From a virus, in the IMG/VR virus record IMGVR_UViG_3300022932_000014, positions 93,638 through 143,127 of that record: a stretch of DNA of 49,490 nt; one strand, given 5' to 3'. A program made the position numbers and the translations under genes. Of this stretch, positions 10,985 to 38,213 are shown in pieces. Below the pieces are notes generated by a model. That model was not told the origin of the DNA and ran no database searches. It was given only the letters and a program-made list of their open reading frames with translations. Numbering within the stretch: the first letter of the stretch is position 1; every line of letters starts with the position of its first letter.

Positions 10985-11106
10985 GATTTTATCCTTCACC
11001 TCTAAAATCGTCTAAAATAATAAGATAATCTCTTAGCAATAAAGACTAATAGAATGAGAAGTGTGAAGGCTCCTTATCTATTAGTCTTTTGCGTTAGGAG
11101 ATTTTT
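10985..11106 (+). promoter_or_regulatory. two-hairpin kissing-loop leader (copy 1)
   Basis: hairpin 1 GATTTTA/TAAAATC with loop CCTTCAC 10993-10999; hairpin 2 with 13-bp perfect stem 11041-11053/11077-11089 and loop GTGAAGG 11063-11069; T tract. Confidence 0.65.
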
Positions 11107-11118
11107 GTATTTTTAAAT

Positions 11119-11425
11119 AGGCGGTACAGAAGTGTATCACATCCTAGAGAGCGAAAGTTAGTATAGGATCAGAAGTCGGGTTGTAATTCTCAAATAGAGA
11201 ATGAGTTGTCCCCGATAGCCGAAAAAATTGCTTATATATAAGTTAGTGGGTACATTTAGACAAGATACGATGAAATGGGTAAATCTTGCAGTACGTTAGG
11301 TGAACGAGGAAATAATACACCCTCAACGAACGGCACTTAGCTAAAGTTATAAGTTAAAATCGCCACTAAGTGATTGGATGGTCAAGGGACGTAAAAGTTC
11401 TTAAAGGGGATTCTTATGCTCGAAA
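11119..11425 (+). ncRNA. candidate structured non-coding RNA of unknown class
   Basis: no ORF in track; about 38% GC by hand count of 11161-11400; at least 8 helices including a GAAA tetraloop and multiple G-U pairs. Confidence 0.55.
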
Positions 11426-11680
11426 ATTACTTTATTAATTGTATTATTATTTACTTCTTGTGCTTTACTTTTTTGGCGGAATAATTAAAATAACTGTTTT
11501 TGACATTCTTTACCTACAGAGTTTCCGCCGCTATAATTAATAGCACATATTTATTTAACAGTTTTGCCAATCTTCGCGCGTAAAAGAGTAAAGAACAGTT
11601 GAAAAAAGAAACGGAAGTTAATATAAAGTCACTGTTAGAAGCCCTAATTATACCCAATTTAAAAATAATTTCAAATTTAA

Positions 11681-11711
11681 TTAGGATATATAAAAATAAT
11701 GATTACATTTG
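11681..11711 (+). promoter_or_regulatory. promoter
   Basis: TACATTTG 11704-11711; degenerate -33 (TTAG). Confidence 0.55.
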
Positions 11712-11731
11712 TAAAATAAAATAATAAAAAT

Positions 11732-12106
11732 ATGAAAGAAAGATTAATAAATTTTAAAACAGCAAAATTAGCTGATAAGAAAGGTTCTGGTAAAATTCAC
11801 TTTATATCTCACGATAATTTTTCGTTTATTAGAGGTGAAAAAGAATATAAAAGGCCATCTCAATCCTTGCTTCAAAAATGGCTCAGAGATGAATTTAATA
11901 TTATAGTTGAGGCTATCTCTCATTACGACTCCACACAATTACCCCTTTCAAAAACAAATATAGTAAAACCTATTGGATGGTTTGCTTGGAATTATTATGA
12001 TAATAATTTTTCACCAGAACAAGCACCTAAGTTCAGTACTTATGAAAAAGCACTGGAGTTCGGATTACAAGAAGGATTGAAATTAATTCAGACAAAAGAA
12101 AATTAA
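11732..12106 (+). CDS. hypothetical protein, paralog family A
   Basis: TAKLA..KG, QSLLQKWLRD, YEKALEFGL motifs shared with 12593 and 15200 ORFs. Confidence 0.8.
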   Translation: MKERLINFKTAKLADKKGSGKIHFISHDNFSFIRGEKEYKRPSQSLLQKWLRDEFNIIVEAISHYDSTQLPLSKTNIVKPIGWFAWNYYDNNFSPEQAPKFSTYEKALEFGLQEGLKLIQTKEN

Positions 12107-12116
12107 AACATCGATT

Positions 12117-12287
12117 ATGAAAAATAAAATAATAACATATAAACAAAAAGGGAAAACAATCTGTGGTCAATATTTAGCTCAAATTGATATTGGCGAAGAC
12201 TCTCAAATTATTATTGTATCCAATAAATTAAAGGACAGAAACATTCTTTTCACTGAGATTAAAAATACTGTTAAGAAACTAATCTAA
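12117..12287 (+). CDS. hypothetical protein (56 aa)
   Basis: read by hand: MKNKIITYKQKGKTICG... Confidence 0.5.
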   Translation: MKNKIITYKQKGKTICGQYLAQIDIGEDSQIIIVSNKLKDRNILFTEIKNTVKKLI

Positions 12288-12334
12288 TTTGCCGCAAAAA
12301 AGATTAAAACAGTAGAAAATAATCAACAAAAAGC

Positions 12335-12365
12335 TTGTAGGAATCAAAAGTAATACTTAGATTTG
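12335..12365 (+). promoter_or_regulatory. promoter
   Basis: TTG 12335-12337, 20-nt spacer, TAGATTTG 12358-12365. Confidence 0.75.
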
Positions 12366-12383
12366 CTGAAATAAAACTAATAA

Positions 12384-12596
12384 ATGGAAACAATAGAAGA
12401 AAAACTCAGAATCTATTGGGAGCGCCGAAAAAACTGTGAAAAAGGAAAACATAAATTAAAAGACAACAGTTTCGGTATTACTTGGTGTGTGACTTGCGGA
12501 TATTTATCTAATAAACCTGCTCCCATAACAGCATTTAAAAACAGTAATCTATTACAACCTGAGGATCAATTAATTTGGCCAAATAAAATAATATGA
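12384..12596 (+). CDS. hypothetical protein, possible Zn ribbon
   Basis: C....H and CxxC. Confidence 0.7.
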   Translation: METIEEKLRIYWERRKNCEKGKHKLKDNSFGITWCVTCGYLSNKPAPITAFKNSNLLQPEDQLIWPNKII

Positions 12597-12928
12597 AAGA
12601 AATTTGTAAACTAGCGCACGAAAAAGGATTTAAAGCAAAAGCATTAAGTACTGATTGGACTCTTAAAGATTATAATGGTAAAAACTCTGGTTTTAAGATA
12701 AGTGACACATGTGATTATCTATTACTTTGTGAGATTCAGAAGTGGATAGCAGATGAGTTTGAAATTTATATTCAAGTTTTCTATCATAAAAGTAGTAAAT
12801 TCGAAGTAATGGTAGTTAATTCTTCTGATAATGTGATAAGTACAGAGTTATTTGGAGAAATGTTTATCAGTTATGAAGAAGCTTTAATGGCGGGGATAAA
12901 ACAAACATTAGAAAATGACACAAAATAA
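12593..12928 (+). CDS. hypothetical protein, paralog family A
   Basis: CKLAHEKGF, IQKWIAD, YEEALMAGI. Confidence 0.75.
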   Translation: MKEICKLAHEKGFKAKALSTDWTLKDYNGKNSGFKISDTCDYLLLCEIQKWIADEFEIYIQVFYHKSSKFEVMVVNSSDNVISTELFGEMFISYEEALMAGIKQTLENDTK

Positions 12929-12993
12929 CACTTTCTTACAAGACTCCAAAGAACACGAAGCAAACTTCAATATAAACAAAAATATTTATTGCA

Positions 12994-13173
12994 ATGAAAT
13001 ACGAACTACAAGATAGATATCCAGGATGTCCAGATTATTTCAAAAAAGGAACAGTTTTAATTAGGTACTCACCTATTTTTGGATTTAGTTATTATTCCGA
13101 TATTTATGATAATTTTAGAATCGCCTCGAAAATAGTAGAAAACGAGCCACTTTGGTTTAAAAATTTAGAATAA
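12994..13173 (+). CDS. hypothetical protein (59 aa)
   Basis: read by hand: MKYELQDRYPG...VENEPLWF. Confidence 0.55.
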   Translation: MKYELQDRYPGCPDYFKKGTVLIRYSPIFGFSYYSDIYDNFRIASKIVENEPLWFKNLE

Positions 13174-13174
13174 T

Positions 13175-13420
13175 ATGGATACAGGAGCATATATGCAAAA
13201 CCAAATGGATAATCAAATCGAGGCAGGAATAAGAATGAAAGATGCTTTTGATGAGTGGATTTTTGAAGCTTGTAATTATAAAGCGATCAACAGTAGAAAA
13301 GATGTACACGACTTATTTCCAATAGTAGATTTAACAGATGCTAAACTATCATTTTTAGATGGTATGTCGGCGGAAGAATATTCAAAAACAAATTTAAAAT
13401 TATGCCAAGAACAGACATAG
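13175..13420 (+). CDS. hypothetical protein
   Basis: ORF. Confidence 0.7.
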   Translation: MDTGAYMQNQMDNQIEAGIRMKDAFDEWIFEACNYKAINSRKDVHDLFPIVDLTDAKLSFLDGMSAEEYSKTNLKLCQEQT

Positions 13421-13971
13421 ATTTCAGCAAACATATTTTATATGAAACACACTACACTAATCCTATCACAGGACATAATCTAGATGTGTGGGAATTAAAA
13501 GTACCAAATACAATGTGGTATAGAGTTATTTTCATTAATTCTTGCGGTGTTTTAACAATTGATGGCGATTATGGCCGTTTTAGTTTTTCTAGAGAATTTC
13601 ATCCATCGAAGGAAGGTCGGGTAAGTGATGGGTATTGGCTAGAAAAGATGAGAAGAGATAATTCTTTAACTTATGATGAATATGATTCAGAGGCCACGGA
13701 AAAAGAAATACAAGAATTAATTGATACAGGACTCCAAGAATATGGTTATGAAGGAGAGGATTTAAAAAAGTTAAAAAGGCAGTTAACCGATTTATTAGAT
13801 TATGTTGACGATAAAATAGCATATCAGTATCATGCTTTTAGAGGAGACATAGATTGAGAATATGAAATGATTCCTTATTGTAAACAACAAAATATTCAAT
13901 TAGACATTTGTTTTGATGCATTTGATTGGATTTGCCAAAAAATGAAAGAAGATGAAAACAAAACTGCTTAG
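13402..13971 (+). pseudogene. hypothetical protein interrupted by in-frame TGA at 13855-13857
   Basis: frame stays open for 37 more codons (EYEMIPYCKQQNIQLDICFDAFDWICQKMKEDENKTA), fills the gap and overlaps the next start. Confidence 0.6.
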
Positions 13972-14266
13972 AAAAATACGTAAAAGATACGAGATAAATT
14001 ACTATCCTAATGGTTATGATTTTGGAAGTGGGTATGATACTAATACAGAATGTGTAGCATTAATAGATACAGGATTTTGGACTTTTAAAGCGAGTCCTAT
14101 TATACACAGAGTATTTCTTGTTGGAGGAACCAGTAAAGAATATGGTTTTAAAGAATGTTTAAACCAATTAAATAATATCATAATAAATAAATATGACTAC
14201 TATGGAACTCGCCGCAATAAAAAACTAGAAAAGAAAGAGGAAAAGCTATGGCACGTTATAAAGTAA
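13952..14266 (+). CDS. hypothetical protein
   Basis: ORF (MKTKLLRKIRKRY). Confidence 0.75.
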   Translation: MKTKLLRKIRKRYEINYYPNGYDFGSGYDTNTECVALIDTGFWTFKASPIIHRVFLVGGTSKEYGFKECLNQLNNIIINKYDYYGTRRNKKLEKKEEKLWHVIK

Positions 14267-14436
14267 CAACAGAACTAAAAACACCTCTCTGGAAGAAACT
14301 GCTTAGATGGATGAGGATGTATCCTAAAATGGAAACTTTTGAACTTATATTTCATGATGCTTGGGTAGATTCATTTACTAAAAATCATATATTAGTGTCA
14401 AATGGCGCGGAAATAAAAATAATAAAGAAATTATAA
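14248..14436 (+). CDS. hypothetical protein
   Basis: overlapping operon ORF. Confidence 0.65.
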   Translation: MARYKVTTELKTPLWKKLLRWMRMYPKMETFELIFHDAWVDSFTKNHILVSNGAEIKIIKKL

Positions 14437-14885
14437 TGGAAAACAAAATACTAGAATTCGTAAGAGAGTTTAACGCAGGATTAGAAAACAGTAATGAGTA
14501 TAACAGCCTCCAATATCAAAATGATGGATATCAAGAAGGAATTCTGTTACCACACATTTATGCTTGGAATGATGACGAGGGAGAAGAGCATTTTAGACAA
14601 AAAGCTTTGAGTAGTTTAGTTCGTCAGTTAGATTTGTTACAAAGTGTTGCAAAAGAACTGTTAGAAGTTGAGATTACTGAGTTTTTCGCGGAAAAGAAAA
14701 AACTAATGAAAGAGAAATTTCCACAAGCAAATCTAAAATATTTTAAAGAAGCTACATTAGAATACAGTATATTAATATCTGGACTATACAATGTAGAATT
14801 AATAGAACAATTCGGTGAAACTGTAGAAGAAGATTTTCAATACCTTTTTGAAGGTTTAAAAATTTCAGACATATCTTATATTTAG
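14436..14885 (+). CDS. hypothetical protein
   Basis: TAATG overlap. Confidence 0.75.
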   Translation: MENKILEFVREFNAGLENSNEYNSLQYQNDGYQEGILLPHIYAWNDDEGEEHFRQKALSSLVRQLDLLQSVAKELLEVEITEFFAEKKKLMKEKFPQANLKYFKEATLEYSILISGLYNVELIEQFGETVEEDFQYLFEGLKISDISYI

Positions 14886-14888
14886 TTT

Positions 14889-15026
14889 ATGAAAGAATGG
14901 TGGCAAACAGTAAATAAAGAAGATCCATATTTATGCAAACTTTACAGTAATATGTTTGGTACAGCAGAACAAAGAATCGCACAATTGTATATAATTAGGA
15001 AAGGATTTAATTTTGAAAAGAAATAA
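14889..15026 (+). CDS. hypothetical protein (45 aa)
   Basis: read by hand: MKEWWQTVNK... Confidence 0.5.
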   Translation: MKEWWQTVNKEDPYLCKLYSNMFGTAEQRIAQLYIIRKGFNFEKK

Positions 15027-15027
15027 T

Positions 15028-15171
15028 ATGAAAGACTCACAAATACAATTACTTATATTAGCAATAATAGGAATATCTTTTCTAATATTTGGTATCGACG
15101 CTATAATAGTCTCAGGTATTATATTAATTGTAATTCAAGTATTAGCTTGGCTTGTAGATGCTTTTATGTAA
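15028..15171 (+). CDS. small membrane protein (47 aa)
   Basis: read by hand: two hydrophobic segments. Confidence 0.55.
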   Translation: MKDSQIQLLILAIIGISFLIFGIDAIIVSGIILIVIQVLAWLVDAFM

Positions 15172-15199
15172 TTCGGCGAAATAAAAACTAAAAACAGAG

Positions 15200-15658
15200 A
15201 TGAAAGAACAACACATATCCTACGAAACAGCAAAACTATGTAAAGAATTAGGTATAGACTTACCTCACACTCATTACTATATTTATCCATTTAGACCAGC
15301 ATTCAAAGCTGATGGAGAATTAAAGAAAAATGCAGTTCCTGACGATTACCATGACACAATGCTTCAGGTAGTAAGGACAAGGAAAAATCAACCTCAAATT
15401 GCTCCTGCTTATACTCAAAGTTTATTGAAAAAATGGCTGAGAGAAACACATAATATTGGAGTTGAATCATATCACGATTATGATCCTAAAGATAAAGGAT
15501 CTCAATTTTATACAAGTTGGGGATATTACAATGAAAAGACAATCAATGGAACTAGAAATGTAAATGGTTGGTATGATGAGTATAATAACTGGAAGAAATA
15601 TGAAGATGCTTTGGAGTTCGGTTTGATTGAAGCTTTGAAAATGGTAAAAATTAAATAA
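15200..15658 (+). CDS. hypothetical protein, paralog family A
   Basis: SYETAKLCKELG, TQSLLKKWLRE, YEDALEFGL. Confidence 0.8.
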   Translation: MKEQHISYETAKLCKELGIDLPHTHYYIYPFRPAFKADGELKKNAVPDDYHDTMLQVVRTRKNQPQIAPAYTQSLLKKWLRETHNIGVESYHDYDPKDKGSQFYTSWGYYNEKTINGTRNVNGWYDEYNNWKKYEDALEFGLIEALKMVKIK

Positions 15659-15663
15659 AAAAT

Positions 15664-15981
15664 ATGTATTCTAGAATTTATGATAAAGAAACAGGGTATC
15701 AAGTAAGATTTTATAACAAACATACAAAAGAAAACATTTGGAAATTTTGCAAAGATAAAAAAGAAGCTCTTAAAAAAGCAAATGAAATAGATATTGAGTA
15801 TCATAAGACTTATAAGAATGAGTTACCAAAAGGTATAACTATGGATATTTCAAATAATAGGTTTAGATTTCATATATGGAATAGTCCAGACCAGCAAAAT
15901 CATATAATATCTAGCAAATCATTATCTAAAGTAATTGATTCAAGAAATTACATACTTATTAACACTTATGGAACTATTTAG
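15664..15981 (+). CDS. putative stand-alone AP2-like DNA-binding protein
   Basis: two beta-beta-beta-helix-like repeats; LPKGI...RFRFHI resembles LPLGI...YMVRI of the AP2 domain in the 37356-38111 endonuclease. Confidence 0.45.
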   Translation: MYSRIYDKETGYQVRFYNKHTKENIWKFCKDKKEALKKANEIDIEYHKTYKNELPKGITMDISNNRFRFHIWNSPDQQNHIISSKSLSKVIDSRNYILINTYGTI

Positions 15982-16281
15982 ATGAAAGATTTAGAAGAGT
16001 GGGCAAGCGAAGAACTAAGGCAATCCGCCGCGAAAAAAGAATTAGACAAAGATTTTGTAAATTTAATGATCCTAGGAATACCAACAGCTTATAAATTTGA
16101 TAAAGATGGAAATATGAGTAAGATAGAAGTCTTTGAATTTAGAGATAATTCAACACGAATGTTTGAAGTAACCATTGGTGATTTTAGTGTTAAACGTAAT
16201 CCAGACGAAACAGAAGAACAGTTTAAAACAAGATTGCAAATAGAGTTGGACAATAACGGATTTGATGTAGAAGTGGTTTAA
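15982..16281 (+). CDS. hypothetical protein
   Basis: ORF. Confidence 0.7.
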   Translation: MKDLEEWASEELRQSAAKKELDKDFVNLMILGIPTAYKFDKDGNMSKIEVFEFRDNSTRMFEVTIGDFSVKRNPDETEEQFKTRLQIELDNNGFDVEVV

Positions 16282-16306
16282 ATCGGCGGATAAAAAATGA
16301 GAACAA

Positions 16307-16576
16307 ATGAGTAAATTCGACGAAAGAACGGTAATAGTGCTTGACAATAGTAATTACATATCAAGCTACGCAGAAAAATGTCCATTTAAAGCCATCGTAA
16401 CAGATGTTTATGAAAATGAAATACAAGTTAAATCTGTAGAGACAGATAAAGAATACGAGCTCTATTATAGTCAGATTTTGGAAACTATGGAAATAGATGA
16501 AATTAAATTTATGCTTAGTGGAGGAGAGTATGGTATGTGGGAATATGAGAGAACAAAATCGCCGCAAAAAAGATGA
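16307..16576 (+). CDS. hypothetical protein
   Basis: ORF. Confidence 0.7.
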   Translation: MSKFDERTVIVLDNSNYISSYAEKCPFKAIVTDVYENEIQVKSVETDKEYELYYSQILETMEIDEIKFMLSGGEYGMWEYERTKSPQKR

Positions 16577-16803
16577 TAACAGAAGAAAAAATTTACAAAG
16601 AACTCTCAGAAATAAGAGGAAGAATAATAGTAGGCCTAATGCATAAAGCTTACTTAGCAACAGAATACCAAAAAGAAAAACCAGAAGATCTACATCAAAC
16701 AGTTTCTTATATTTCTGACAAAACTAAATGGGATTATTGCGGAATAAGTTCTAAAGAAGATTTGATTAAATTGGAGCTATTAGAGAAATTAATTAAACAG
16801 TGA
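16573..16803 (+). CDS. hypothetical protein
   Basis: ATGA overlap. Confidence 0.7.
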   Translation: MITEEKIYKELSEIRGRIIVGLMHKAYLATEYQKEKPEDLHQTVSYISDKTKWDYCGISSKEDLIKLELLEKLIKQ

Positions 16804-16804
16804 T

Positions 16805-17050
16805 ATGAAAGAATTGGAAAACAGTTTAATAAACTTCTTAACATCATTAGGAGTTAAACCAAGTGTAAAGAAGAAGAAAATAGTAAGACAACCTTCTGAA
16901 ATGGAGTTAATGATTGATCTTAAAAATAATGAACTAATCATTGATGAATATTTACAAGGATTTTCTACAGAAGAAATTTGTTTAAAGAATAATATTTCGT
17001 TTAAAAATGTAGATAAAATTATTGATTGTTATAATTATTTGTATAATTGA
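16805..17050 (+). CDS. hypothetical protein with possible C-terminal HTH
   Basis: YLQGFSTEEICLKNNISFKNVDKII. Confidence 0.6.
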   Translation: MKELENSLINFLTSLGVKPSVKKKKIVRQPSEMELMIDLKNNELIIDEYLQGFSTEEICLKNNISFKNVDKIIDCYNYLYN

Positions 17051-17112: not shown

Positions 17113-19221
17113 ATGGAAGATAAGAAGGTAGAAGAAAACAAAGAACAAATAATATTCTTAACTTATGATATTGAAACTTTTCTAAGTATCTTCTGTGTTG
17201 TATTTAAATACCAAGGAAGGTATAAAACATTCGAAATAAGCGAGAGAAAAGATCAATATGAAGAACTAATAGCTTTTCTAAAAGAAGGTGCTTTAAAACG
17301 CTGGTTTTTCGTCGGATTCAATAATTGCCGATTTGATGCACAAGTTCTTCAATGGTTAATGGAAGCTAAAGATTCATTTAAAAAATTGACAGGTAAAACT
17401 AAAGCAAAACATATCATGGAATTTGCTCAATCTGTTATTGAAAAAATAAATAGAAAGGAATTCCCTCCTTATCAAGAATCTAAATTATCTTGTCAACAAT
17501 TAGATTTATTTTTACAGAACCACTACAATAACCGAGCAAGATCAACCAGCTTAAAGTGGATCGAGTACTCCATGAACTGGAAAAAAGTTCAAGATTTACC
17601 TTATAAATTTGATGAAGTTCTTGAAATAGATAAATTTGACGATATTATTCTTTATTGTCATAATGACGTAGATGCAACAGAAGAATTTTTCAAGAAATCA
17701 GAAAAATTAGTTGAATTAAGATTTACTCAACAGATGGAGAATCCTCATCTAGAATTATTTAATAAATCAGATAGTAGTATTGGAGAAGCATTATTTTTAG
17801 ATTTGATGTCTGAGAAATTAGATATTGAAAAAAGTAAACTAAAGAAAATGCAAACTCGCCGTAAAACAATTGAATTAAAAGATATAATTCTTCCTTATAT
17901 TAAATTTGAAACACCTGAATTCAATTCTGTTTTAGACTTTTTTAAAGAACAAATTATTACCGAAGATACTAAAGATGCTTTTAAACATTTAATGATATTC
18001 GATGAAGGTGACTATTTCTATGGTTTAGGGGGACTCCATTTTGCAAGAGGAAATTCTATATTTAATTCAAATGAAAAAGAAATTGTACTTTCAATAGATT
18101 TTGCAAGTTTTTACCCAAATATCTCGATCAAAAATAGATTTTACCCAGAACATTTATCTGAAGCTTTTTGCGTATTATATGAAGAATTGTTTGAAAAACG
18201 TAAATTAATTCCTAAATCAAACCCTCAAAATACTGCAATTAAGTTACTTTTAAATGCGGCTTTTGGTAAAGGAGGCGATGAATACAGTTTTCTTTACGAT
18301 AAATTATTTCAAATGGCTATCACAGTAAATGGTCAGTTAATACTTTCAATGCTCTGTGAACAGCTCTCTAAAATAGAAGGTGTTAAGATTGTAATGGCAA
18401 ATACAGATGGTCTTGAATTAATTGTACCTAAAGATAAGAAAAGAGAAGTATATAATACCTGCGTATCAATTGAAAATCTAACTGAATTACAATTAGAATA
18501 TTCAGTTTATGATAAATTGTTTACCCGCGATATAAATAATTACCTGGGAATTGATACAAATGGTAAATTAAAAATGAAGGGTGCCTTTGAAATTGATGTA
18601 GAAATGCATAAAAATCGTAGTCAGAGAATTGTACAAATTGCAGTTATGAGATATTTTATCCACAATGTGCCAGTAGAAGAAACAGTTAAAAATCATTTAT
18701 CAGTAGGTAATTACGGTAAAATAGAGAATCAAGGAATATATGATTTTTGTATTGGTAAAAAGATACAAAGTAATCAAAATTATACATTAGAAGATAATCA
18801 GGAAAATATTATAAAAAACATCAATGATAAAGTAATTAGATTTTATGTTTCAAATAATGGTGATAATTTGCGAAAAAATTATAACGATGGTCGAAAAGAA
18901 ATAACTGTTGGTGGAAGTAAGATAACAATGTTCATGGATTATTATGATTCTAAAAATTATGAAATTGATTATGATTACTATATAAATCAAGCATTTAGAA
19001 TTATTCATAGTGTGGATGGAACAGAGGAAAGATTAGAAGCTGAAAGGAAAGCCTTAATTGAACAGAAGAAAAAAGAAAGAGAAGAAGAAAATTATATTAA
19101 ATTCTGTATAGATAAAATTCCAACTCAGCTTCAATATTCAAATTATAATAGAGAATGGTTGCAAGAGAAATACGGAATCCCTGCGGAAATAAAACCTTCT
19201 AAAACAAAAATTAAAGAATGA
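17113..19221 (+). CDS. polB: family B DNA polymerase with 3'-5' exonuclease
   Basis: ExoI YDIET, ExoII GFNN..FD, ExoIII YCHNDV; Pol A DFASFYP, Pol B KLLLNAAFGK, Pol C NTDG; KGAF. Confidence 0.93.
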   Translation: MEDKKVEENKEQIIFLTYDIETFLSIFCVVFKYQGRYKTFEISERKDQYEELIAFLKEGALKRWFFVGFNNCRFDAQVLQWLMEAKDSFKKLTGKTKAKHIMEFAQSVIEKINRKEFPPYQESKLSCQQLDLFLQNHYNNRARSTSLKWIEYSMNWKKVQDLPYKFDEVLEIDKFDDIILYCHNDVDATEEFFKKSEKLVELRFTQQMENPHLELFNKSDSSIGEALFLDLMSEKLDIEKSKLKKMQTRRKTIELKDIILPYIKFETPEFNSVLDFFKEQIITEDTKDAFKHLMIFDEGDYFYGLGGLHFARGNSIFNSNEKEIVLSIDFASFYPNISIKNRFYPEHLSEAFCVLYEELFEKRKLIPKSNPQNTAIKLLLNAAFGKGGDEYSFLYDKLFQMAITVNGQLILSMLCEQLSKIEGVKIVMANTDGLELIVPKDKKREVYNTCVSIENLTELQLEYSVYDKLFTRDINNYLGIDTNGKLKMKGAFEIDVEMHKNRSQRIVQIAVMRYFIHNVPVEETVKNHLSVGNYGKIENQGIYDFCIGKKIQSNQNYTLEDNQENIIKNINDKVIRFYVSNNGDNLRKNYNDGRKEITVGGSKITMFMDYYDSKNYEIDYDYYINQAFRIIHSVDGTEERLEAERKALIEQKKKEREEENYIKFCIDKIPTQLQYSNYNREWLQEKYGIPAEIKPSKTKIKE

Positions 19222-19925
19222 TAACAAACGAACAAAAACAAGTAATGTTAAGTGGAATTTTAGGAGATGGTCACTTAATTAAAAATGGGGGAGGAGCAAT
19301 GAGTTTTTCTTGTCAACATAAAGAGTATATGGAATTTAAAAAATCTCTTTTAGGGGACTTAGCTACTGATGTAAAAGTAGTGAATAATAATGGTTACAAA
19401 AAAGGTACAATATATACTTTGAGATGTAAATCAAACCAATATGGTAAGTTTTTACTTAAATGCGGATTTGATGATATAATGGAAGAAATGGATGATTTAG
19501 GTATCGGAATGTGGTTGGTAGATGATGGTAGCCGTCATAAAAAAGATAACTTTTATAATATTAATACACACGCTATTGATAGAAATATAGAAGAAGAGAT
19601 TTTAATTCCCCACTTGAATAAAAGAAACATATTTCCTAAAGTTTTAACCGAGACTAAAAAAGATGGTAGAATTTTCTCTTATCTTTATATTTCAAAATGG
19701 CAAGGTGCCATGGAGTTATCTAGAATGATACGTAATTTAAATTTAAAATGTTATGATTATAAAGTAGCACCCATTGAATTAGAAGAGGCTTATTTTTTAT
19801 ATAAAGATTTAGAAGAGTTCAAATCTAAAACCACACAAGGTAAGACTAATTTCATAAAAAAGTATTTAAATATAGGATATAAAGATTTCATGCATAAGAA
19901 CATTACTAGTATAGATAAGAAATAA
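19218..19925 (+). CDS. LAGLIDADG homing endonuclease (double motif)
   Basis: MLSGILGDGHL and GIGMWLVDDGS; ATGA-coupled to polB. Confidence 0.85.
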   Translation: MITNEQKQVMLSGILGDGHLIKNGGGAMSFSCQHKEYMEFKKSLLGDLATDVKVVNNNGYKKGTIYTLRCKSNQYGKFLLKCGFDDIMEEMDDLGIGMWLVDDGSRHKKDNFYNINTHAIDRNIEEEILIPHLNKRNIFPKVLTETKKDGRIFSYLYISKWQGAMELSRMIRNLNLKCYDYKVAPIELEEAYFLYKDLEEFKSKTTQGKTNFIKKYLNIGYKDFMHKNITSIDKK

Positions 19926-19980: not shown

Positions 19981-20009
19981 CTGTTTTTTCACTCTTTTTG
20001 CGCGAAAAA
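19981..20009 (+). repeat. representative copy of the dispersed YTGTTTT-N-TTTT-[GC]5-6-AAA motif
   Basis: CTGTTTTTTCACTCTTTTTGCGCGAAAAA; more than 20 similar copies in both orientations (see findings). Confidence 0.8.
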
Positions 20010-20028
20010 CTAATAAAATAACATCAAA

Positions 20029-28937: not shown

Positions 28938-28968
28938 TTTGAGGTCTGGATTTAAATGCTTACTTTTG
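28938..28968 (+). promoter_or_regulatory. promoter of endonuclease VII gene
   Basis: TTTG 28938-28941, 19-nt spacer, TACTTTTG 28961-28968. Confidence 0.7.
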
Positions 28969-28972: not shown

Positions 28973-29081
28973 GTTAACTACTTGATGCAACATTTAGCTA
29001 ACTTAGAAAAATTATATTTTTACCGAAAAGCTTCTTTCATTACCTATTGCATTAGGTGTTTGAGAGGAGTTTTTCATTTTT
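28973..29081 (+). promoter_or_regulatory. two-hairpin kissing-loop leader (copy 2)
   Basis: hairpin 1 GTTAACTA/TAGCTAAC with loop ATGCAA 28985-28990; hairpin 2 29026-29074 with loop TTGCAT 29047-29052; T tract before ATG. Confidence 0.65.
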
Positions 29082-29087: not shown

Positions 29088-29654
29088 ATGTGTGAATTAA
29101 AATTTTGCAGAGCTTGTGAAAAAGACAAAGATGTTTTGGAGTTCCATAAAAAACAAGAATATCCTGATGGTAGGTATCCTAGATGTAAAGAGTGTGTCAA
29201 AGCTAAAATATATCTTCCTGAAAAAATTTTTATAATTGAAGGTCAAAAGAAGTGCTCTAAATGTGGAGATATGAAGGATCTTTCATGTTTTGATAAAAGA
29301 GTTAATAGAAAATCAGGTATTCAATCTATGTGTAGACATTGTAGGGCTTCTTATCCTAAAAATAAATATCCTGAACGAATAAGAAATTACGATTTACTAA
29401 AAACTTATGGAATATCATCTGAAGACTTTGAAAATCTTTTAAAATCTCAAAATAATTGTTGTGCTATTTGTAATATAAATCAATATGAATTAAAAGATCG
29501 TAAGAAAAAGTTTTTATGCGTAGACCATTGCCACGAGAGTGGTAATATACGTGGTTTGCTCTGTGATAAGTGCAACAGAGGTATAGGATTACTTGGAGAT
29601 GATGTAAGTAACTTAAAATCAGCTGTTAACTATTTATCCAAATACTCTGTTTAA
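29088..29654 (+). CDS. endonuclease VII-domain (His-Me) endonuclease with N-terminal Zn fingers, probably a homing endonuclease
   Basis: YGISSEDF..LL.SQNNCCAIC, VDHCHESGNIRGLLCDKCNRGIG; two CxxC...CxxC repeats. Confidence 0.88.
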   Translation: MCELKFCRACEKDKDVLEFHKKQEYPDGRYPRCKECVKAKIYLPEKIFIIEGQKKCSKCGDMKDLSCFDKRVNRKSGIQSMCRHCRASYPKNKYPERIRNYDLLKTYGISSEDFENLLKSQNNCCAICNINQYELKDRKKKFLCVDHCHESGNIRGLLCDKCNRGIGLLGDDVSNLKSAVNYLSKYSV

Positions 29655-32185: not shown

Positions 32186-32191
32186 AGTTAT

Positions 32192-32347: not shown

Positions 32348-32673
32348 ATTTTATAAGGTTTTATTTCTTCACATTTTAATTCATATGTCTTACTACACCA
32401 ATGATTAGCTGGTTTTTGATAGGTATATGTGTATTCAAATTGACCTGTCCATCCTGTTTCATAAGAATAAAGTCCATTATGGTCTTCTCCATATTCTTTA
32501 CCTAAGTGATACAAAACCAAATCTCCTATTTTATTTTCACCATCATCTTTTGTTAGTCGGTCAACTTTATATCTGTACAATTTAAGCCTTTCTAGTTCAT
32601 GATCTTGAAATCCTTTTTTAAGTTCTGTGTATTGATCAGGATATTTTCTTTTTAACCATTTGTTGAATTCCAT
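32344..32673 (-). CDS. hypothetical protein
   Basis: ORF. Confidence 0.7.
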   Translation of the reverse strand: MEFNKWLKRKYPDQYTELKKGFQDHELERLKLYRYKVDRLTKDDGENKIGDLVLYHLGKEYGEDHNGLYSYETGWTGQFEYTYTYQKPANHWCSKTYELKCEEIKPYKI

Positions 32674-33320
32674 TACAATAATTTTACAGTTACTTTTTTC
32701 TCATGTGATCCCCAATTCATTCTTCCTGTCTCATATTTATAATACGATTCTAATTCTATTTTTGGTGTATTAACTTTTTTCGAAAACTTTTTAATTGATT
32801 TTAAAACTTCCGCCTCACATACGTCAATTTTTCTATTTTCGTAATACCAAATAAACCCAAACCCTTTTTCAACCTCAACAGGTTTCTTTTCTGATTGATA
32901 ATTTTTCAAATAAGTACTATCTGTAATTTTCTCTAATTCTCCTAAATATAAATATTGTCGCCCAGAAACAGTCTCATAAACACATCCTCTTTCTAAATCT
33001 TTTTTTCCGAGCGGTTTGATTTTTGCTTGTTCTCCATGCATACCGTATTTTAAGGAAATATCTTTTCTGAATAAACTTGTGATTTGCTCCTTAGTGAATT
33101 CTTCTGCGTCAAAAACTGTATCAAATTCTTCTAAAGTCATATCTTTTAATAGATTCACCCAACCACCAATTGCACCATATCTATATCGGCCATAATGAGA
33201 ATTTTTCTTCACGTCTTTCATGAACATTTCTTTATCCCACAATTGAAAAGATGCCATAATGTTTGTTCTATCTCCGCTTGTAGTACTTGTAAATATGTAT
33301 TTCTTATCTGTTTGTTTCAT
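32673..33320 (-). CDS. hypothetical protein
   Basis: 215-aa ORF. Confidence 0.8.
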   Translation of the reverse strand: MKQTDKKYIFTSTTSGDRTNIMASFQLWDKEMFMKDVKKNSHYGRYRYGAIGGWVNLLKDMTLEEFDTVFDAEEFTKEQITSLFRKDISLKYGMHGEQAKIKPLGKKDLERGCVYETVSGRQYLYLGELEKITDSTYLKNYQSEKKPVEVEKGFGFIWYYENRKIDVCEAEVLKSIKKFSKKVNTPKIELESYYKYETGRMNWGSHEKKVTVKLL

Positions 33321-33534
33321 AACTTACTACTTGTTTACCGTTAATTGTTTCTATTTTACCAACAGCAATATAACTGTTTCTTTCTTTTACTTTGTATTTT
33401 AAGCGGAGCTTCTTTTTTATTTTGTTCCAGAAATTTAAAGGCTCTTCTGGTAAATAATCGTCATATCCAAAGATATATTGAGGCCGCTTATAGTCTTTAC
33501 TCATTTGCCAGATTATTGGTTTATTTTGTATCAT
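33304..33534 (-). CDS. hypothetical protein
   Basis: overlapping ORF. Confidence 0.6.
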   Translation of the reverse strand: MIQNKPIIWQMSKDYKRPQYIFGYDDYLPEEPLNFWNKIKKKLRLKYKVKERNSYIAVGKIETINGKQVVSYETNR

Positions 33535-33706
33535 ATATCTTCATTATTTTAAATACCCCTATGGATTCTTTTTCTGCATATTCTAATAGCTCTTCTTCGG
33601 ATTCAAATTTAATAGCGTCTATATAACTCTTACCGAACCTTATTCCTCTTTTTCCGCTCCAAAGTAGATTAGATAGAATACTTTGTATTAGATATTTCGT
33701 TTTCAT
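33521..33706 (-). CDS. hypothetical protein
   Basis: overlapping ORF. Confidence 0.65.
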   Translation of the reverse strand: MKTKYLIQSILSNLLWSGKRGIRFGKSYIDAIKFESEEELLEYAEKESIGVFKIMKIYDTK

Positions 33707-33872
33707 ATTGTTCTTTATATGTTAATTGTATTTCTTCTAATATGTCCACTGAACTTAGTTCTACACAGTCTTGACAAATTAATATATTGTCATAAAAATC
33801 TGAAGGTTTAAAGTTGAAATATTTTATTAGTTTTCTTTTCGCGCCGATTGGTGTTATTTTAGACTTTTTCAT
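33669..33872 (-). CDS. hypothetical protein
   Basis: overlapping ORF. Confidence 0.55.
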   Translation of the reverse strand: MKKSKITPIGAKRKLIKYFNFKPSDFYDNILICQDCVELSSVDILEEIQLTYKEQYENEISNTKYSI

Positions 33873-34458
33873 GACTTACTTTATAAGTTAATAATCTATC
33901 CATTTGTTTCTGTAGCTTTTCAACTTCATTGTCAATGTTAGTGTTAAATTCCTCAACATTCAAAAGTCTAACCGTTTCTTGTCGTCCATACTCTGAACCT
34001 CTCACAATTTCATAAGCCTCCTGAGTTGTGTATTTACCCGCAAAGATAATATCATCTGAATATCCACCCCTGTTTGCACCCCAATAGCCTCTATAACATC
34101 CCGCCCACACAACAGCTAAATCATTTGGATTAGAAACAGTTAAATCTAAAGCTTTTTGATCACGTTCTTTACACCAAATATGTTTTTCAATGGCATGACG
34201 TTTCATTTCTTTGCCTTCAAATAAAATAGTGTCATGTTCTTTTGCTCTCTGTGCTATAATGTCTGTGTAATAAACTTCTGTATCATCGTATTTGTAGTCT
34301 GCTAATTTCGTAGCGCCTAGATTACGCATTTCTGTTAGGCCTTTACTTCTCGCTTCATTTCGTGTTTCGGCAATTGTGATAACATCATTATAGTGCCAAG
34401 GCTCTTCTAAGTTTTTGACAGATATTTTCCAAGCTTTTTTAATTATTTGTTCTTTCAT
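33859..34458 (-). CDS. hypothetical protein
   Basis: GYWGANRGGYS...AGKYT..EA motif. Confidence 0.8.
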   Translation of the reverse strand: MKEQIIKKAWKISVKNLEEPWHYNDVITIAETRNEARSKGLTEMRNLGATKLADYKYDDTEVYYTDIIAQRAKEHDTILFEGKEMKRHAIEKHIWCKERDQKALDLTVSNPNDLAVVWAGCYRGYWGANRGGYSDDIIFAGKYTTQEAYEIVRGSEYGRQETVRLLNVEEFNTNIDNEVEKLQKQMDRLLTYKVSHEKV

Positions 34459-35273
34459 ATTAAATCTAAAATTGAGTTTCTGTCTTTACCGAAAAATGGT
34501 GTTTCGATAACTTCCCATTTACTTCTTACTACTTCTGTTTTTAATGCTTCTGGATTATCATTCTTATAAAGTTGTCCATTTACATAAGTATTTTTTACAA
34601 TAAAACTCCCCCTCTTTTTAGAAAAGTGCAGATCATTCCAATTATGACCTTTTTGAAAACACATTTCCTGCATGTCATTACCATTCTTTTTGTGAAGTTC
34701 GTTGTGTGAGTATAAAGACTGTGCTAACATAGCAACCGAATTTTTCTCTGCATCTCTTTGTCTCCAAATTAAACAATTTACAACTTCTTCTTTTTCGGGG
34801 ATTTGAAATACGCGGGAATCAAATAATGCCAAAGTCATTCTATCAATGTTAGTGCTTATGAAGGTTTCAATATCAGTACTTTCGCAATCTCCATTCATCA
34901 TATTTCTTAGTGTTCTCAACTGATTAAACTTAGCTGTTGCTATAGAAGCTGAAATGGAAGTCATTTTCTGTACCGAGTAGTCAAACCACGCCGAAGTTTC
35001 AAAAGTGTCATAATCTGTCAGAACCAAAGTGATTTCATCTGATTGAGTATAGCCCATCTTACAACCTTGAATATTTTGACATAAAAATTTAGTAGTTTCC
35101 TGCATATCTTCAATAAGTCCTTCATCAAAAGGTTTATCTAGTCCTTTAGTGTAAGTGTGAAATGCTTTTCCGTCCAACCTAATAATAGTTGGAGTTCTTC
35201 TTGTTAAATATTGTTTACTACGGTTTTCGTAGTTCTCTTTCATTCTTGTTGATAATGCTGTATTGTCTGGCAT
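34455..35273 (-). CDS. tRNA(His) guanylyltransferase Thg1-like protein (3'-5' polymerase)
   Basis: MKENYE, RLDGKAFH, GYTQSDEI, QKMTSISAS, FDSR, WRQRDAEKNS; start re-set to ATG 35273 (MPDNT). Confidence 0.92.
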   Translation of the reverse strand: MPDNTALSTRMKENYENRSKQYLTRRTPTIIRLDGKAFHTYTKGLDKPFDEGLIEDMQETTKFLCQNIQGCKMGYTQSDEITLVLTDYDTFETSAWFDYSVQKMTSISASIATAKFNQLRTLRNMMNGDCESTDIETFISTNIDRMTLALFDSRVFQIPEKEEVVNCLIWRQRDAEKNSVAMLAQSLYSHNELHKKNGNDMQEMCFQKGHNWNDLHFSKKRGSFIVKNTYVNGQLYKNDNPEALKTEVVRSKWEVIETPFFGKDRNSILDLI

Positions 35274-35275
35274 AA

Positions 35276-36244
35276 TTATACTCTGTTTAAAAACCAAATT
35301 CTGGCTTTGTTACTCACTGCTGATTTTACTTTCTTTGCATCAAATTGATTGGCTACAATTGTATCTGTTTCTTCTTTAATAACATCCTTAACCATCCAAC
35401 CTAAGAATTGTCCTGTGCTTTTTTGATCTAAACTAAATCCCATTTCTGTAAGATATTGAATTCCTTGTTCTAACCTGTTTTCAGTTACAGCTAAATCCAC
35501 AAATTCTTTTAGTCCTTCTAGAGATTCGGTATCTACAGCGTTTAGTGTTTTAACTTTTGACGCGCTGTGTTTTTCTCCTTTTGACTTAAATTTAAAATCT
35601 TCATTATCAACACTTGTCCATACAATTCCTTCGCCAATTCCACTAACTCCGAAAAACTTTCCTACTGGACACTCCTCTTCGACAGCCATTGTTAGTTCAA
35701 TAAGTTTATTTTGAGAAAGTTCTGGATTATTAAAATCAATATCCATTTCATAAGTAGGAAATTGTAGTATGTTATAAATATTATTTTCATTATCTTGGAA
35801 ATCAGCTCGTAAATCAATCCACACATCATCTATTTTAATTCCGAATATAATAAACATTTTAGGAAGTCCATTTATAGCCACACCTTTTTGGATATTACCT
35901 CCACACCATTCACCGTAAACTGCAACATATTCATTAAAATTAAATCTCTCTAAAGCACCTATCCAATTTGTATTTAACATTGCTAACATGAATCCAGCGT
36001 TATCCTGTTCTAAAGACAGAACTCTTTCTCTTGATTGAAATTCTATTCTTTCATCGGATTTGTATTTTACTACAGCGGCATTAGTTCCATGAATTTTAAC
36101 TGTCCCTCTAAACTTTATTGTTGGATAGTCGCTTGTGTGAGAGTAAATTGCATTACCACTTTCGTCTTTTCCTTGATAATCATGGTTTTCTTTTACTTTT
36201 CTAATTACATTACGGAATTGTTCAATCGAATTATACTTTTTCAT
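35276..36244 (-). CDS. RNA ligase, Rnl2 family
   Basis: motif I KIHGTN, QSR, motif III YGEWCG, IIIa FIIFGI, IV GEGIV, V FKSKGEKH. Confidence 0.9.
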   Translation of the reverse strand: MKKYNSIEQFRNVIRKVKENHDYQGKDESGNAIYSHTSDYPTIKFRGTVKIHGTNAAVVKYKSDERIEFQSRERVLSLEQDNAGFMLAMLNTNWIGALERFNFNEYVAVYGEWCGGNIQKGVAINGLPKMFIIFGIKIDDVWIDLRADFQDNENNIYNILQFPTYEMDIDFNNPELSQNKLIELTMAVEEECPVGKFFGVSGIGEGIVWTSVDNEDFKFKSKGEKHSASKVKTLNAVDTESLEGLKEFVDLAVTENRLEQGIQYLTEMGFSLDQKSTGQFLGWMVKDVIKEETDTIVANQFDAKKVKSAVSNKARIWFLNRV

Positions 36245-36285
36245 ATTTCTGGTTTTTAATTTTTTATTAATTTCGGCGAAAAAAG

Positions 36286-36465
36286 TTAAACAAAGAGTCT
36301 TTGAGGACAGTTATCACTATGTTCTCCTGTAGTCATATAACAACACATACATTCATTGGAAGGTTGACTGGCCTCCCACAAATCAATTATTTCTTGCTCT
36401 GCGTCAGCTAATGTAATAGTGCCATCATTTAAATTGTCAAATACTTCTCTTATTTCTTTTATCAT
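36286..36465 (-). CDS. hypothetical protein (59 aa)
   Basis: read by hand; CxxC..H...C tail. Confidence 0.55.
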   Translation of the reverse strand: MIKEIREVFDNLNDGTITLADAEQEIIDLWEASQPSNECMCCYMTTGEHSDNCPQRLFV

Positions 36466-36875
36466 AACGTATTTATATCAATTGCTAACCCTTTTTTGAT
36501 TAATCCGTGAATATCGAAATGATGTTTCAATAACAAATTTACCAAATAAAATTCTACACAATCTAAACTTTTGTCTGATTGATATATAGATAAAATAGTA
36601 TCAATGTCATTGCTTACAAATATATCATTCCATATTTGCTCAGTAAGGTCGGATAGTGGCCTTAAAATAGGAAAAACATCACAATAATACATCTCTTCTG
36701 TAACTGTTCGGTCTTCTTCGTAGATCTCGACAAAAACACTATTCAACCCTACTATTTCAAATACTTGTGGAGTAGGATTGTCGTCAAATTCTGTATCTGC
36801 CGTATATTCACCTGCAATGTGGCATTTTAAATCTGTTCCTAGGTACCCTTTAAGGTGTTTTAATTCTAATTTCAT
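36462..36875 (-). CDS. hypothetical protein (common Bacteroidota-phage family)
   Basis: LELKHL..YL, PILRPLSDL, HFDIHGLI..GLAIDINTL. Confidence 0.8.
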   Translation of the reverse strand: MKLELKHLKGYLGTDLKCHIAGEYTADTEFDDNPTPQVFEIVGLNSVFVEIYEEDRTVTEEMYYCDVFPILRPLSDLTEQIWNDIFVSNDIDTILSIYQSDKSLDCVEFYLVNLLLKHHFDIHGLIKKGLAIDINTL

Positions 36876-36993
36876 ATATTTCTAAATTTAAATATAATTT
36901 ATATCTGGCTAATCTATACAGTAGCTCATTATTATAATTTTGTCTTGCTTCCAACATTACATATTTCCACCAAATTCTTTTAATTGCTTTCAT
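36850..36993 (-). CDS. hypothetical protein (47 aa)
   Basis: read by hand: MKAIKRIWWKY... Confidence 0.4.
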   Translation of the reverse strand: MKAIKRIWWKYVMLEARQNYNNELLYRLARYKLYLNLEIYEIRIKTP

Positions 36994-37011
36994 ATTTTCC
37001 GCGAAAAGGAT

Positions 37012-37299
37012 TTAAAAACCAGAAAAAGTTACACTAATAATACCTTTTATATTACTATTAGGTTTAGTAACTTCCAATTTAGCTCCTCCTCCTTGAGTAA
37101 TATTTTTACTTAAATCTAAAAGATAATCTTCTCCTACTTCCTCTTCTTTATCTCCAAAGAAATCCATTAAATGCTTTCTAACAGCTTTAACTACATCTTG
37201 TCTCTTTGGGCAGAATATTGAATTGAAATATTCTTTACCGTCTAACTCTCCATTAATTTCTACAAATGTATTATTTTGTGCTTTGTTTATTCTTTTCAT
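37012..37299 (-). CDS. hypothetical protein
   Basis: first ORF after promoter. Confidence 0.7.
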   Translation of the reverse strand: MKRINKAQNNTFVEINGELDGKEYFNSIFCPKRQDVVKAVRKHLMDFFGDKEEEVGEDYLLDLSKNITQGGGAKLEVTKPNSNIKGIISVTFSGF

Positions 37300-37319
37300 G
37301 TTATATGTTTAATTTTTTG

Positions 37320-37350
37320 TAAATTTAGTTTATTTATTTTTATTGTGCAA
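37320..37350 (-). promoter_or_regulatory. promoter (variant -7) for the minus-arm accessory operon
   Basis: reverse strand TTG 37350-37348, 20-nt spacer, TAAATTTA 37327-37320. Confidence 0.6.
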
Positions 37351-37355
37351 GATAT

Positions 37356-38111
37356 TTACTGAATATTTTCATAATCAACTGTATAATTATACATTGCTTG
37401 GTAAACTTCTGGTTCAATTAAAGGTTTCCATTCGTCTGCTACTCTCTTCATTTTTGCTTCCAAGGCTTGCTTATATACTGAACATGCTTTATTTAAGTCA
37501 CTAAAATTCCCCAGTGAAGGCCTATTTTTTCCTTCACTTATTCTGACCATATATTTTTTACCATTTTTTGTGATTCCTAATGGAAGCTTACTCTTTTTGA
37601 AAGGTTGAGTTTGAAATAAAATATTAATTACTTTAGGAACAAAGCAACAAGTTGATTCAGAGTATACTCTATTTCCTTTAATTAATATATCTTTGTCAAG
37701 CTCCCATCTTTTCATAGTTTCTGGATTATATTTATTTGTCATCCATTCTGCAAAATTTTGAAAGTTATGCCACTTTTTATCAACCTCACACCCTCTATAA
37801 CTAGGATTTTTAATTAGTTCTGCTTCATCATAACATCTACATAATATTTTTCTCCACTTATCATATATTATACTCTTTCTATATGCTCTATATTTTCCAT
37901 AACCTAAATACCCAACTCCATATAAAGTAGGTTGATTGTAGTTCTTTACATTTCCTTTTACTATACTACCAAATTCAACATTGTAATTTATGGTGCCATC
38001 TTGAAATCTAATAGTGCAATCATAGTATCCTTTACAATCAATTATTTCAATCTCTCCATAATGTTTTGTGGGAAATCTTAATCCAATTCTTTCTTCGTGA
38101 TTTATCTTCAT
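37356..38111 (-). CDS. HNH-like homing endonuclease with C-terminal AP2 domain
   Basis: YGVGYLG, W..IL.RCY, WHNFQNFAEW, LDKDIL..GNRVYS..TCCFVP..IN, LPLGI..LGNF; start re-set to ATG 38111 (MKINHEE). Confidence 0.85.
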   Translation of the reverse strand: MKINHEERIGLRFPTKHYGEIEIIDCKGYYDCTIRFQDGTINYNVEFGSIVKGNVKNYNQPTLYGVGYLGYGKYRAYRKSIIYDKWRKILCRCYDEAELIKNPSYRGCEVDKKWHNFQNFAEWMTNKYNPETMKRWELDKDILIKGNRVYSESTCCFVPKVINILFQTQPFKKSKLPLGITKNGKKYMVRISEGKNRPSLGNFSDLNKACSVYKQALEAKMKRVADEWKPLIEPEVYQAMYNYTVDYENIQ

Positions 38112-38117
38112 ATTTTT

Positions 38118-38213
38118 AAAATAAAAACCCACCCAATAGGACGGTTCGAGCGCCTAAAAGGTGGGGTAACAATAATTTCTTTTAAATTAATTAAGCCTCG
38201 AACGAATAATCAA
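38118..38213 (-). promoter_or_regulatory. two-hairpin kissing-loop leader (copy 3)
   Basis: reverse strand: TTGATTA/TAATTAA hairpin with loop GTTCGAG; ACCCCACCT..TAGG / CCTA..GGGTGGGT hairpin with loop CTCGAAC; T tract before ATG. Confidence 0.65.

Follow-up and report, generated by a model that had tools for sequence, protein, structure and literature searches.

Leaders with two complementary hairpin loops

The window analysed here is a 49,490-nucleotide stretch of phage DNA, the last 49 kb of a 143,127-bp IMG/VR virus record; the genome of this phage is referred to below as G000. The window carries three copies of a promoter-proximal leader in which a promoter-like site is followed, always in the same order, by a short 5′ hairpin (H1), an A/U-rich linker of 17-22 nt, a long hairpin (H2) and a U tract (Table 1). 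A preliminary description of the DNA, made from the sequence alone, had placed the three copies and reported that the loops of their two hairpins are exactly complementary. Re-reading and folding of the DNA bore out the positions of all three, and the H1 and H2 loops match exactly over 7, 6 and 7 nt in copies 1, 2 and 3, respectively; this loop motif is called the code. The promoters in the window have the Bacteroidota form, TTTG, about 19-20 nt and then TAnnTTTG, and all leader promoters mentioned here are consensus matches from a pattern scan. Folding z-scores are -5.7 for copy 1, -6.1 for copy 2 and -2.9 for copy 3, and when the loop windows are shuffled with their composition preserved, complementarity equal to that observed arises with P = 0.006, 0.019 and 0.003. 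By nhmmer the three copies are not alignable to one another.

The predicted energy of H2 lies between -18 and -31 kcal/mol, and U occupies 5-7 of the 8 bases that follow it in each of the three copies, which is the sequence pattern of an intrinsic terminator. Two of the loops carry caveats. In copy 1, weak pairing within the apical part of H2 could cover some of the motif. For H1 of copy 3 the minimum-energy form is a CCUCG/CGAGG hairpin of -5.4 to -7.8 kcal/mol that buries 4 nt of the motif, and the A/U stem that exposes the loop is worth only -1.0 kcal/mol alone, yet this stem is conserved in a homologous leader (L029, below).

Table 1. Parts of the three leaders and the endonuclease genes that follow copies 2 and 3, in window coordinates
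Feature	Position	Strand	Description	Basis
Copy 1 promoter-like site	10929..10960	+	TTTG at 10929, 20-nt spacer, -7 box TATATTTA at 10953-10960	pattern match
Copy 1 H1	10985..11009	+	7-bp A/U stem, 11-nt loop, code CCTTCAC at 10993-10999	folds
Copy 1 A/U-rich linker	11010..11026	+	17 nt	
Copy 1 H2	11027..11103	+	long imperfect hairpin, ~30 pairs, -31 kcal/mol; apical loop GTGAAGG at 11063-11069	
Copy 1 U runs	11102-11114	+	after H2	
Copy 2 promoter-like site	28938..28968	+	TTTG ... TACTTTTG, -7 box at 28961-28968	pattern match
Copy 2 H1	28973..29002	+	loop code ATGCAA at 28985-28990	folds
Copy 2 linker	29003..29024	+	22 nt	
Copy 2 H2	29025..29075	+	21 pairs, -24 kcal/mol; 6-nt loop TTGCAT at 29047-29052	
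Copy 2 U runs	29070-29081	+	ATG follows at 29088	
Homing endonuclease gene after copy 2	29088..29654	+	EndoVII-type HNH, 188 aa	Pfam PF02945, E = 5e-19; PHROG endonuclease VII
Homing endonuclease gene after copy 3	37356..38111	-	HNH-type, 251 aa	PHROG 953 'HNH endonuclease', E = 6.5e-51; no Pfam match
Copy 3 U run	38127-38118	-	ATG follows at 38111	
Copy 3 H2	38128..38165	-	G/C-rich base, -18 kcal/mol; loop CTCGAAC at 38150-38144	
Copy 3 linker	38166..38185	-	20 nt	
Copy 3 H1	38186..38214	-	A/U stem, code GTTCGAG at 38203-38197	folds
Copy 3 competing G/C hairpin	38218-38196	-		
Copy 3 promoter-like site	38219..38250	-	TTTG ... TATATTTG, -7 box at 38226-38219	pattern match

Homologous leaders and covariation of the loops

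The window copies were compared with related IMG/VR phages, whose loci are given L numbers; one close relative, G008, has a syntenic genome of 143,064 bp. The leaders are grouped into type A (copy 2 and its homologues), type B (copy 3 and its homologues) and type D (copy 1-like). Beyond the four copies of G000, one of which lies outside the window, 17 more leaders were found in the related phages. Ten of the 17 were recovered without reference to their loops, through synteny, protein homology or an invariant stem, and nine of these ten keep a perfect loop-loop match of 7-10 nt in a different sequence. This bears out across genomes the earlier proposal that complementarity is kept while the sequence changes.

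Homologous leaders lie downstream of the homologue of a 416-aa gene in relatives (L030, L033, L051 and L029). The first three can be aligned with copy 2, at a column identity of 81%, and make up type A with it, while the counterpart of copy 3 is L029 (type B); both groupings are confirmed by nhmmer. Type A has seven kissing pairs, with 96% of cells paired and two pairs changed on both sides; its three homologues carry 7-nt codes, copy 2 is shorter by one base in each loop, and the two lost bases are partners. Across the type-A homologues there is almost no variation in the 3′ part of the copy 2 linker and at the start of H2. In type B, two pairs have changed on both sides between L029 and copy 3, so that the A/U stem carries a different code, and L041 keeps 8 of 9 pairs, one G-U counted. 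Type-D leaders with perfect matches of 10, 8 and 9 nt were reached through the downstream helix-turn-helix protein (L260, L261 and L263), and one with a 10-nt match through the invariant part of H2 (L267). The orthologue of copy 1 in G008 retains the promoter-like site and the H1 stem and has a new 7-nt code with a matching partner loop; the same stem is kept in L261 with yet another code.

Hairpin pairs with matching loops are common, a loose scan finding 83 of them with 6-nt matches in the genome, and three stricter tests were applied for this reason. A whole-genome descriptor scan with constrained folding gave the three window copies as its strongest hits (strongest H2 plus U tail) and returned the fourth copy, which lies behind a promoter at 53,876-53,994 of the genome and has an 8-nt code. 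In 1.2 Mb comprising G000 and 13 relatives, 10 real matches passed the context filter against 3 in a mirror-repeat control; before that filter the raw counts equalled those of the control. The third and decisive test was provided by the leaders recovered without reference to their loops, described above, which represent all three types. The mean match is 7.5 nt between the two loops of one leader and 3.2 nt between non-cognate loops.

The covariation across genomes shows that the loop-loop pairing is under selection and that the RNA class is genuine. The predicted contact has the form of a kissing loop, in which compensatory change preserves Watson-Crick complementarity between the loops of two hairpins. 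In each of the 16 instances tested, folding favours the sense strand over its complement, by 7.8 kcal/mol on average, since the stems contain G-U pairs, and this sense-only stability argues that the structure is read from the transcript. On these alignments and predicted folds the leader is best described as a conserved sense-strand RNA of about 95-125 nt with a code pairing of 6-10 bp kept by compensatory change.

MAFFT alignment across types A, B and D was poor, the types not being alignable to one another, and no single covariance model was built on that account. A search of Rfam 15 at the gathering threshold gave no match in the window or in five homologous loci; at E-value thresholds it gave noise only (E > 1) around copy 1 and nothing around copy 4. 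The ARAGORN scan of the window found no tRNA or tmRNA, and among GenBank phages BLAST with the leaders and their flanks as queries turned up no homologue of the leader. An exact-pattern scan of metagenomes with the type-A core returned, among the matches listed, unrelated coding sequence only, and an IMG/VR scan with the type-B pattern returned L029 alone. A broad terminator scan and the loose hairpin-pair scan were too noisy for use; in the structure scans many false hairpin-pair matches came from a collagen-like GGX-repeat coding sequence at positions 5100-8600 of L227 (G006).

Genes and non-coding DNA behind the leaders

As the preliminary description held, copies 2 and 3 precede endonuclease genes of different families (PF02945 EndoVII-HNH and PHROG-953 HNH), and the two translationally coupled endonuclease genes of the window, a NUMOD4-HNH gene at 6104-6805 and a LAGLIDADG gene at 19218-19925, have no leader. 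Among the relatives, leaders of types A and B head at least four kinds of endonuclease, namely EndoVII-HNH, PHROG-953 HNH, NUMOD4-HNH-AP2 and several GIY-YIG enzymes. Type D in the relatives heads helix-turn-helix (HTH) proteins of 278-310 aa, whose Atlas look-alikes carry HTH_36, HTH_24 and HTH_11. In G000, type D (copies 1 and 4) heads DNA free of open reading frames (ORFs).

The observation that copy 1 precedes non-coding DNA was likewise confirmed, there being no ORF of at least 50 aa in 11119..11730 on the plus strand. This region is 79% identical to the syntenic region of G008 over 547 nt and opens, directly after the leader, with a 25-nt stretch that is nearly identical in the two; its folding z-score is only -1.1. 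The fourth copy is followed by about 530 nt without ORFs. That stretch (G000 53,996-54,530; L076:1497-2031) has a folding z-score of -5.3 and a GC content of 34%, against 31% for the genome, and is a candidate non-coding RNA of about 500 nt; the same site carries an HTH gene in G008. A decayed gene behind copies 1 and 4 was considered and set aside, as tblastn with the type-D HTH proteins finds nothing there or elsewhere in the genome. A leader peptide was also rejected: a 34-codon frame opens from an AUG inside the copy 2 code and is not kept in L030 or L033.

Leaderless endonuclease genes occur as well. A homologue of the copy 3 endonuclease at about 12,560-12,720 of G000 (minus strand, outside the window) has its own promoter and no leader; its insertion point lies directly behind a short relic ORF. 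In L004/L031, which has the closest homologue of the copy 2 endonuclease, that gene comes immediately after the 416-aa gene. In two cultured phages the arrangements differ from a two-hairpin leader: Tenacibaculum phage PTm1 has an HNH gene coupled to a helicase gene, without a leader, and in Flavobacterium phage FL-1 a GIY-YIG gene is preceded by a promoter and a single terminator-like hairpin, with no loop pairing seen. The leader is therefore not specific to endonuclease genes, and endonuclease genes can do without it.

The preliminary description had suggested that the leader limits the expression of toxic selfish genes. As an exclusive function this does not hold, because the same architecture stands before HTH genes and conserved ORF-free DNA and an endonuclease gene with its own promoter lacks it. 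The kinds of function put forward, an attenuator or a small RNA released by termination, appear reasonable, since a host-type promoter stands before the leader, the downstream unit comes after it, and a terminator-like hairpin closes it.

Leaders at the borders of exchanged cassettes

Comparison of G000 with G008 places the leaders at points where homology ends. At the copy 4 site the two genomes share 95% nucleotide identity up to the 5′ arm of H1, where the identity stops, and G008 continues with another code and an HTH gene. At the copy 3 site homology runs through the promoter, whose position is shared, and ends at the -7 box, beyond which G008 has a different leader and a GIY-YIG gene. 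The end of homology at the -7 box or inside H1 indicates that the leader is part of the exchanged unit, with the promoter or H1 as the joint. Different relatives have different leader types and endonuclease families at one genomic site, and the same type-A leader family heads different endonuclease families. As judged from these genome comparisons, the leader lies at the 5′ border of gene cassettes that can be exchanged among a group of Bacteroidota phages, and close relatives have swapped it together with the downstream gene.

An 8-kb IMG/VR contig (L051:3651-6229) carries a leaderless HNH gene, a distant homologue of the 416-aa gene and a type-A leader with a GIY-YIG gene, an order from which it follows that endonuclease cassettes can stack at that locus.

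A code that changes faster than its surroundings

Three type-D leaders, L233 (in G008), L260 and L267, are near-identical (92% column identity), and the flanking protein is 98% identical between L233 and L260. Their variable columns are concentrated in the hairpin elements that carry the code: 15 of 35 columns vary in H1 and 5 of 11 in the partner loop, but only 7 of 120 in the remainder. None of the ten kissing pairs is broken in any of the three leaders, and four of the ten have changed on both sides. One recombination patch could not have produced this pattern, since the two loops are separated by 60 nt of invariant sequence.

Within any one genome, no two copies have the same code. The code GGTCAAG is common to L029 and L084, which are otherwise unalignable by nhmmer, and L033 and L051 share another. 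No third pairing partner was found elsewhere in their genomes for codes of 8-10 nt. Two sources of switching or variation were considered and rejected. One is the diversity-generating retroelement of the phage, for the changes lack adenine specificity and nhmmer finds no second leader copy; the other is an invertible promoter between inverted repeats, for the repeats present are only 6-10 bp, with the promoter outside them.

Proposed mechanism and alternatives

The leader is tentatively read as a terminator-based attenuator that would also yield a small RNA, with the loop contact setting the fraction of transcripts that pass; to this reading, drawn from sequence and folding, we give not quite an even chance. 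H2 and its U tract would serve as an intrinsic terminator, which in types A and B lies 12-18 nt ahead of the start codon. Transcription from the cassette promoter, together with read-through from the upstream gene, would mostly stop at H2, releasing a compact small RNA, and only a dosed fraction would continue into the gene. The loop-loop contact could hold the terminator hairpin in its fold, or give the leader as a whole its geometry, and in this way set the fraction of read-through; it could also close the small RNA against nucleases. The U run after H2 in types A and B and in copy 1 supports termination, as does the flagging of copy 3 by a terminator scan. Phage T4 offers a precedent for partial termination, about 30% of transcripts stopping at terminators in the 5′ part of mobE and segF (PMC2988022).

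Several points weigh against attenuation. It would be odd to express a gene from a promoter that stands immediately before a strong terminator. A simple terminator scan flags H2 of copy 3 and leaves those of copies 1 and 2 unflagged, because they contain bulges that such a scan does not allow, and the U tract is poor in some type-D leaders, the fourth copy of G000 being an example. By our geometric estimate, the H2 of about 30 pairs and the linker of 7-17 nt in type D would strain an intramolecular coaxial contact. Many endonuclease genes have no leader, among them homologues of the copy 3 endonuclease in the loci of five relatives (L025, L032, L051, L081 and L233) and the G000 gene near 12.6 kb, where only about 20 nt separate promoter and ATG. 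Finally, the code is far more variable than its surroundings, and a purely structural staple should be more conserved.

The hypervariable code and the strained geometry of type D are the reasons for keeping, as the main rival, a fairly unlikely model in which the RNA acts in trans and is addressed by its code. The terminated leader would pair through its loops with its own copies or with nascent leaders of the same code, giving cassette-specific feedback, heteroimmunity-like control or homo-oligomers, as with P4 CI, P1/P7 c4 and phi29 pRNA. Kissing-loop antisense control is known from ColE1 RNA I/II, R1 CopA/CopT and pT181-type attenuation, and P4 CI and P1/P7 c4 are same-strand immunity RNAs. 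In these plasmid and phage RNAs the loop contacts are of 6-8 nt, the loop sequence sets the specificity and differs between close relatives, and in pT181 and P4 the pairing decides whether transcription terminates prematurely in the leader. The leaders share with the same-strand immunity RNAs complementary segments on one transcript and a specificity that covaries among relatives. They differ in that the known systems use two RNAs, or a processed RNA with separate target sites, whereas here both partners are loops of one short leader with no evident antisense promoter or processing site.

A code that is hypervariable yet perfectly covarying in near-identical leaders is the signature that selection on specificity would be expected to leave, and the trans model also gains from the different code of each copy in one genome, from the sharing of GGTCAAG by two unalignable leaders, from the long codes for which only another leader could serve as partner, and from the long H2 and short linker of type D, which disfavour intramolecular pairing. 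The phi29-family pRNA shows that two complementary loops of one RNA can pair between molecules (PMC4201828); it too is a phage RNA with two mutually complementary, covarying loops that pair between identical molecules, but it is part of the packaging motor, has a three-way junction and 4-nt contacts, and is neither promoter-proximal nor linked to a terminator. Against action in trans, the linkers of 19-27 nt in types A and B allow intramolecular pairing, which should outcompete it, the accumulation of a small RNA is so far a prediction, and differing codes within one genome are expected by chance. It is unlikely, if conceivable, that the loop pair is an address rather than a staple, by which a leader would recognise only leaders of the same code and so, between co-infecting relatives, control the downstream gene in trans, as a heteroimmunity-like or exclusion system, or self-assemble; the code would then be driven to change rapidly, in both loops together.

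An improbable alternative to attenuation is that the leader is a fold of the 5′ untranslated region that tunes the stability or translation of the mRNA without appreciable termination, H1, at the extreme 5′ end, protecting the transcript and H2, whose end lies close before the A/U-rich start region, limiting or positioning ribosome entry in a host that does not use Shine-Dalgarno sequences. The spacing in types A and B suits it, as H1 starts 4-6 nt past the -7 box, approximately at the transcript start, and H2 ends 12-18 nt before the ATG; there is also a very stable hairpin just upstream of the ribosome-binding site (RBS) of a seg-type gene in Aeromonas phage 25 (PMC2988022). No ORF comes after copies 1 and 4, however, the start codon is never inside H2, and the U tracts would stay unexplained. 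The nearest precedents are the T-even homing-endonuclease RNAs, in which 5′ hairpins or terminators (the terminators of T4 mobE and segF; the RBS hairpins of I-TevI, I-TevII, I-TevIII, segB and Aeh1 mobE) repress free-standing genes that are set between conserved genes and have their own promoters (PMC2988022). Those systems lack a second hairpin and loop-loop pairing, they have their terminators within the coding region, and the RBS or an embedded late promoter forms part of their hairpins, whereas here the ATG stands clear of H2, no promoter box occurs inside H2, and genes other than endonucleases are involved as well.

A DNA-level element, in which the promoter/stem-loop junction would serve as a recombination site for cassette shuffling in the manner of PeSL, with loop complementarity as a by-product, is very improbable. 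It would account for the ends of G000/G008 homology inside H1 and at the -7 box and for the varied combinations of site, leader type and endonuclease family, and PeSL crossovers have been mapped in or beside the stem-loop (PMC2839356). The PeSL cassettes of T4-type phages are likewise repeated promoter-plus-terminator modules that border accessory genes shuffled among close relatives (PMC2839356; PMC4122927), and the leader, like them, lies at replacement breakpoints between close relatives, here G000 and G008. The order of parts is nevertheless reversed: a PeSL consists of stem-loop, AT-rich region, promoter and start codon (PMC2839356), so that its stem-loop stands upstream of the promoter and terminates the preceding unit, whereas here the promoter precedes both hairpins. 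A PeSL is also a single hairpin of conserved sequence rather than variable code and has no kissing partner. Stems with G-U pairs that are stable only on the sense strand, in 16 of 16 instances, do not suit a DNA element, and compensatory changes in loops 60 nt apart with invariant sequence between them do not come from a single crossover. The models of stability or translation and of PeSL-like recombination are lesser rivals.

The weakest alternative, chance complementarity picked out by eye in an A/T-rich genome, draws on the many loosely matching pairs and on raw counts equal to those of the mirror control, and its probability is negligible, being refuted by covariation: the loops still pair in independently found homologues whose sequences are new, the covariation is borne out by formal counts of pairs, and the per-copy shuffles give P of 0.003-0.02.

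Novelty and significance

The linker is conserved within types only, and no conserved junction or ligand pocket of the purine-riboswitch kind was found. Literature searches brought up no work in which kissing or other loop-loop contacts are linked to homing endonucleases, leaders or terminators. The present analysis contributes the hypervariable code of leaders that are otherwise almost the same, the finding that HTH genes and non-coding DNA can follow the leader, and its position at cassette breakpoints.

If the proposed functions hold, the leaders would form a widespread, uncatalogued module of regulatory RNA in Bacteroidota phages, one that moves along with mobile gene cassettes. The case for its tertiary contact would be exceptionally clear, with perfect covariation and a code that changes faster than the neighbouring DNA, and it would provide a natural set of orthogonal kissing pairs attached to terminators. 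It would also give a way of studying how the dose of homing endonucleases and early regulators is set by phages whose hosts do without Shine-Dalgarno-led translation, and possibly an RNA-based specificity system between related phages. For annotation, the motif can mark cassette boundaries and host-RNA-polymerase transcription units in uncultured phage genomes.

Other features of the window

Upstream of many genes, and sometimes just upstream of leaders, stands a repeatedly found motif some 25 nt long, in which a T-rich run precedes CGCCGAAA or GCGCGAAAA. It occurs in the window at 10878-10905, about 100-130, 11455-11480, 11518-11535 and 19985-20012, and also in L027, L032, L092, L104 and L261, and may be a signal for the phage's own transcription. 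At 1730-1794 of the window a promoter-like site is followed by a single terminator-like hairpin and a U run, a one-hairpin leader without a kissing partner that precedes the gene for the ribonucleotide reductase small subunit (1828-2814). The gene at 5074-5778 encodes a 234-aa protein whose C-terminus matches the T7 gp5.9 RecBCD-inhibitor family (PF25708, E = 9e-15).

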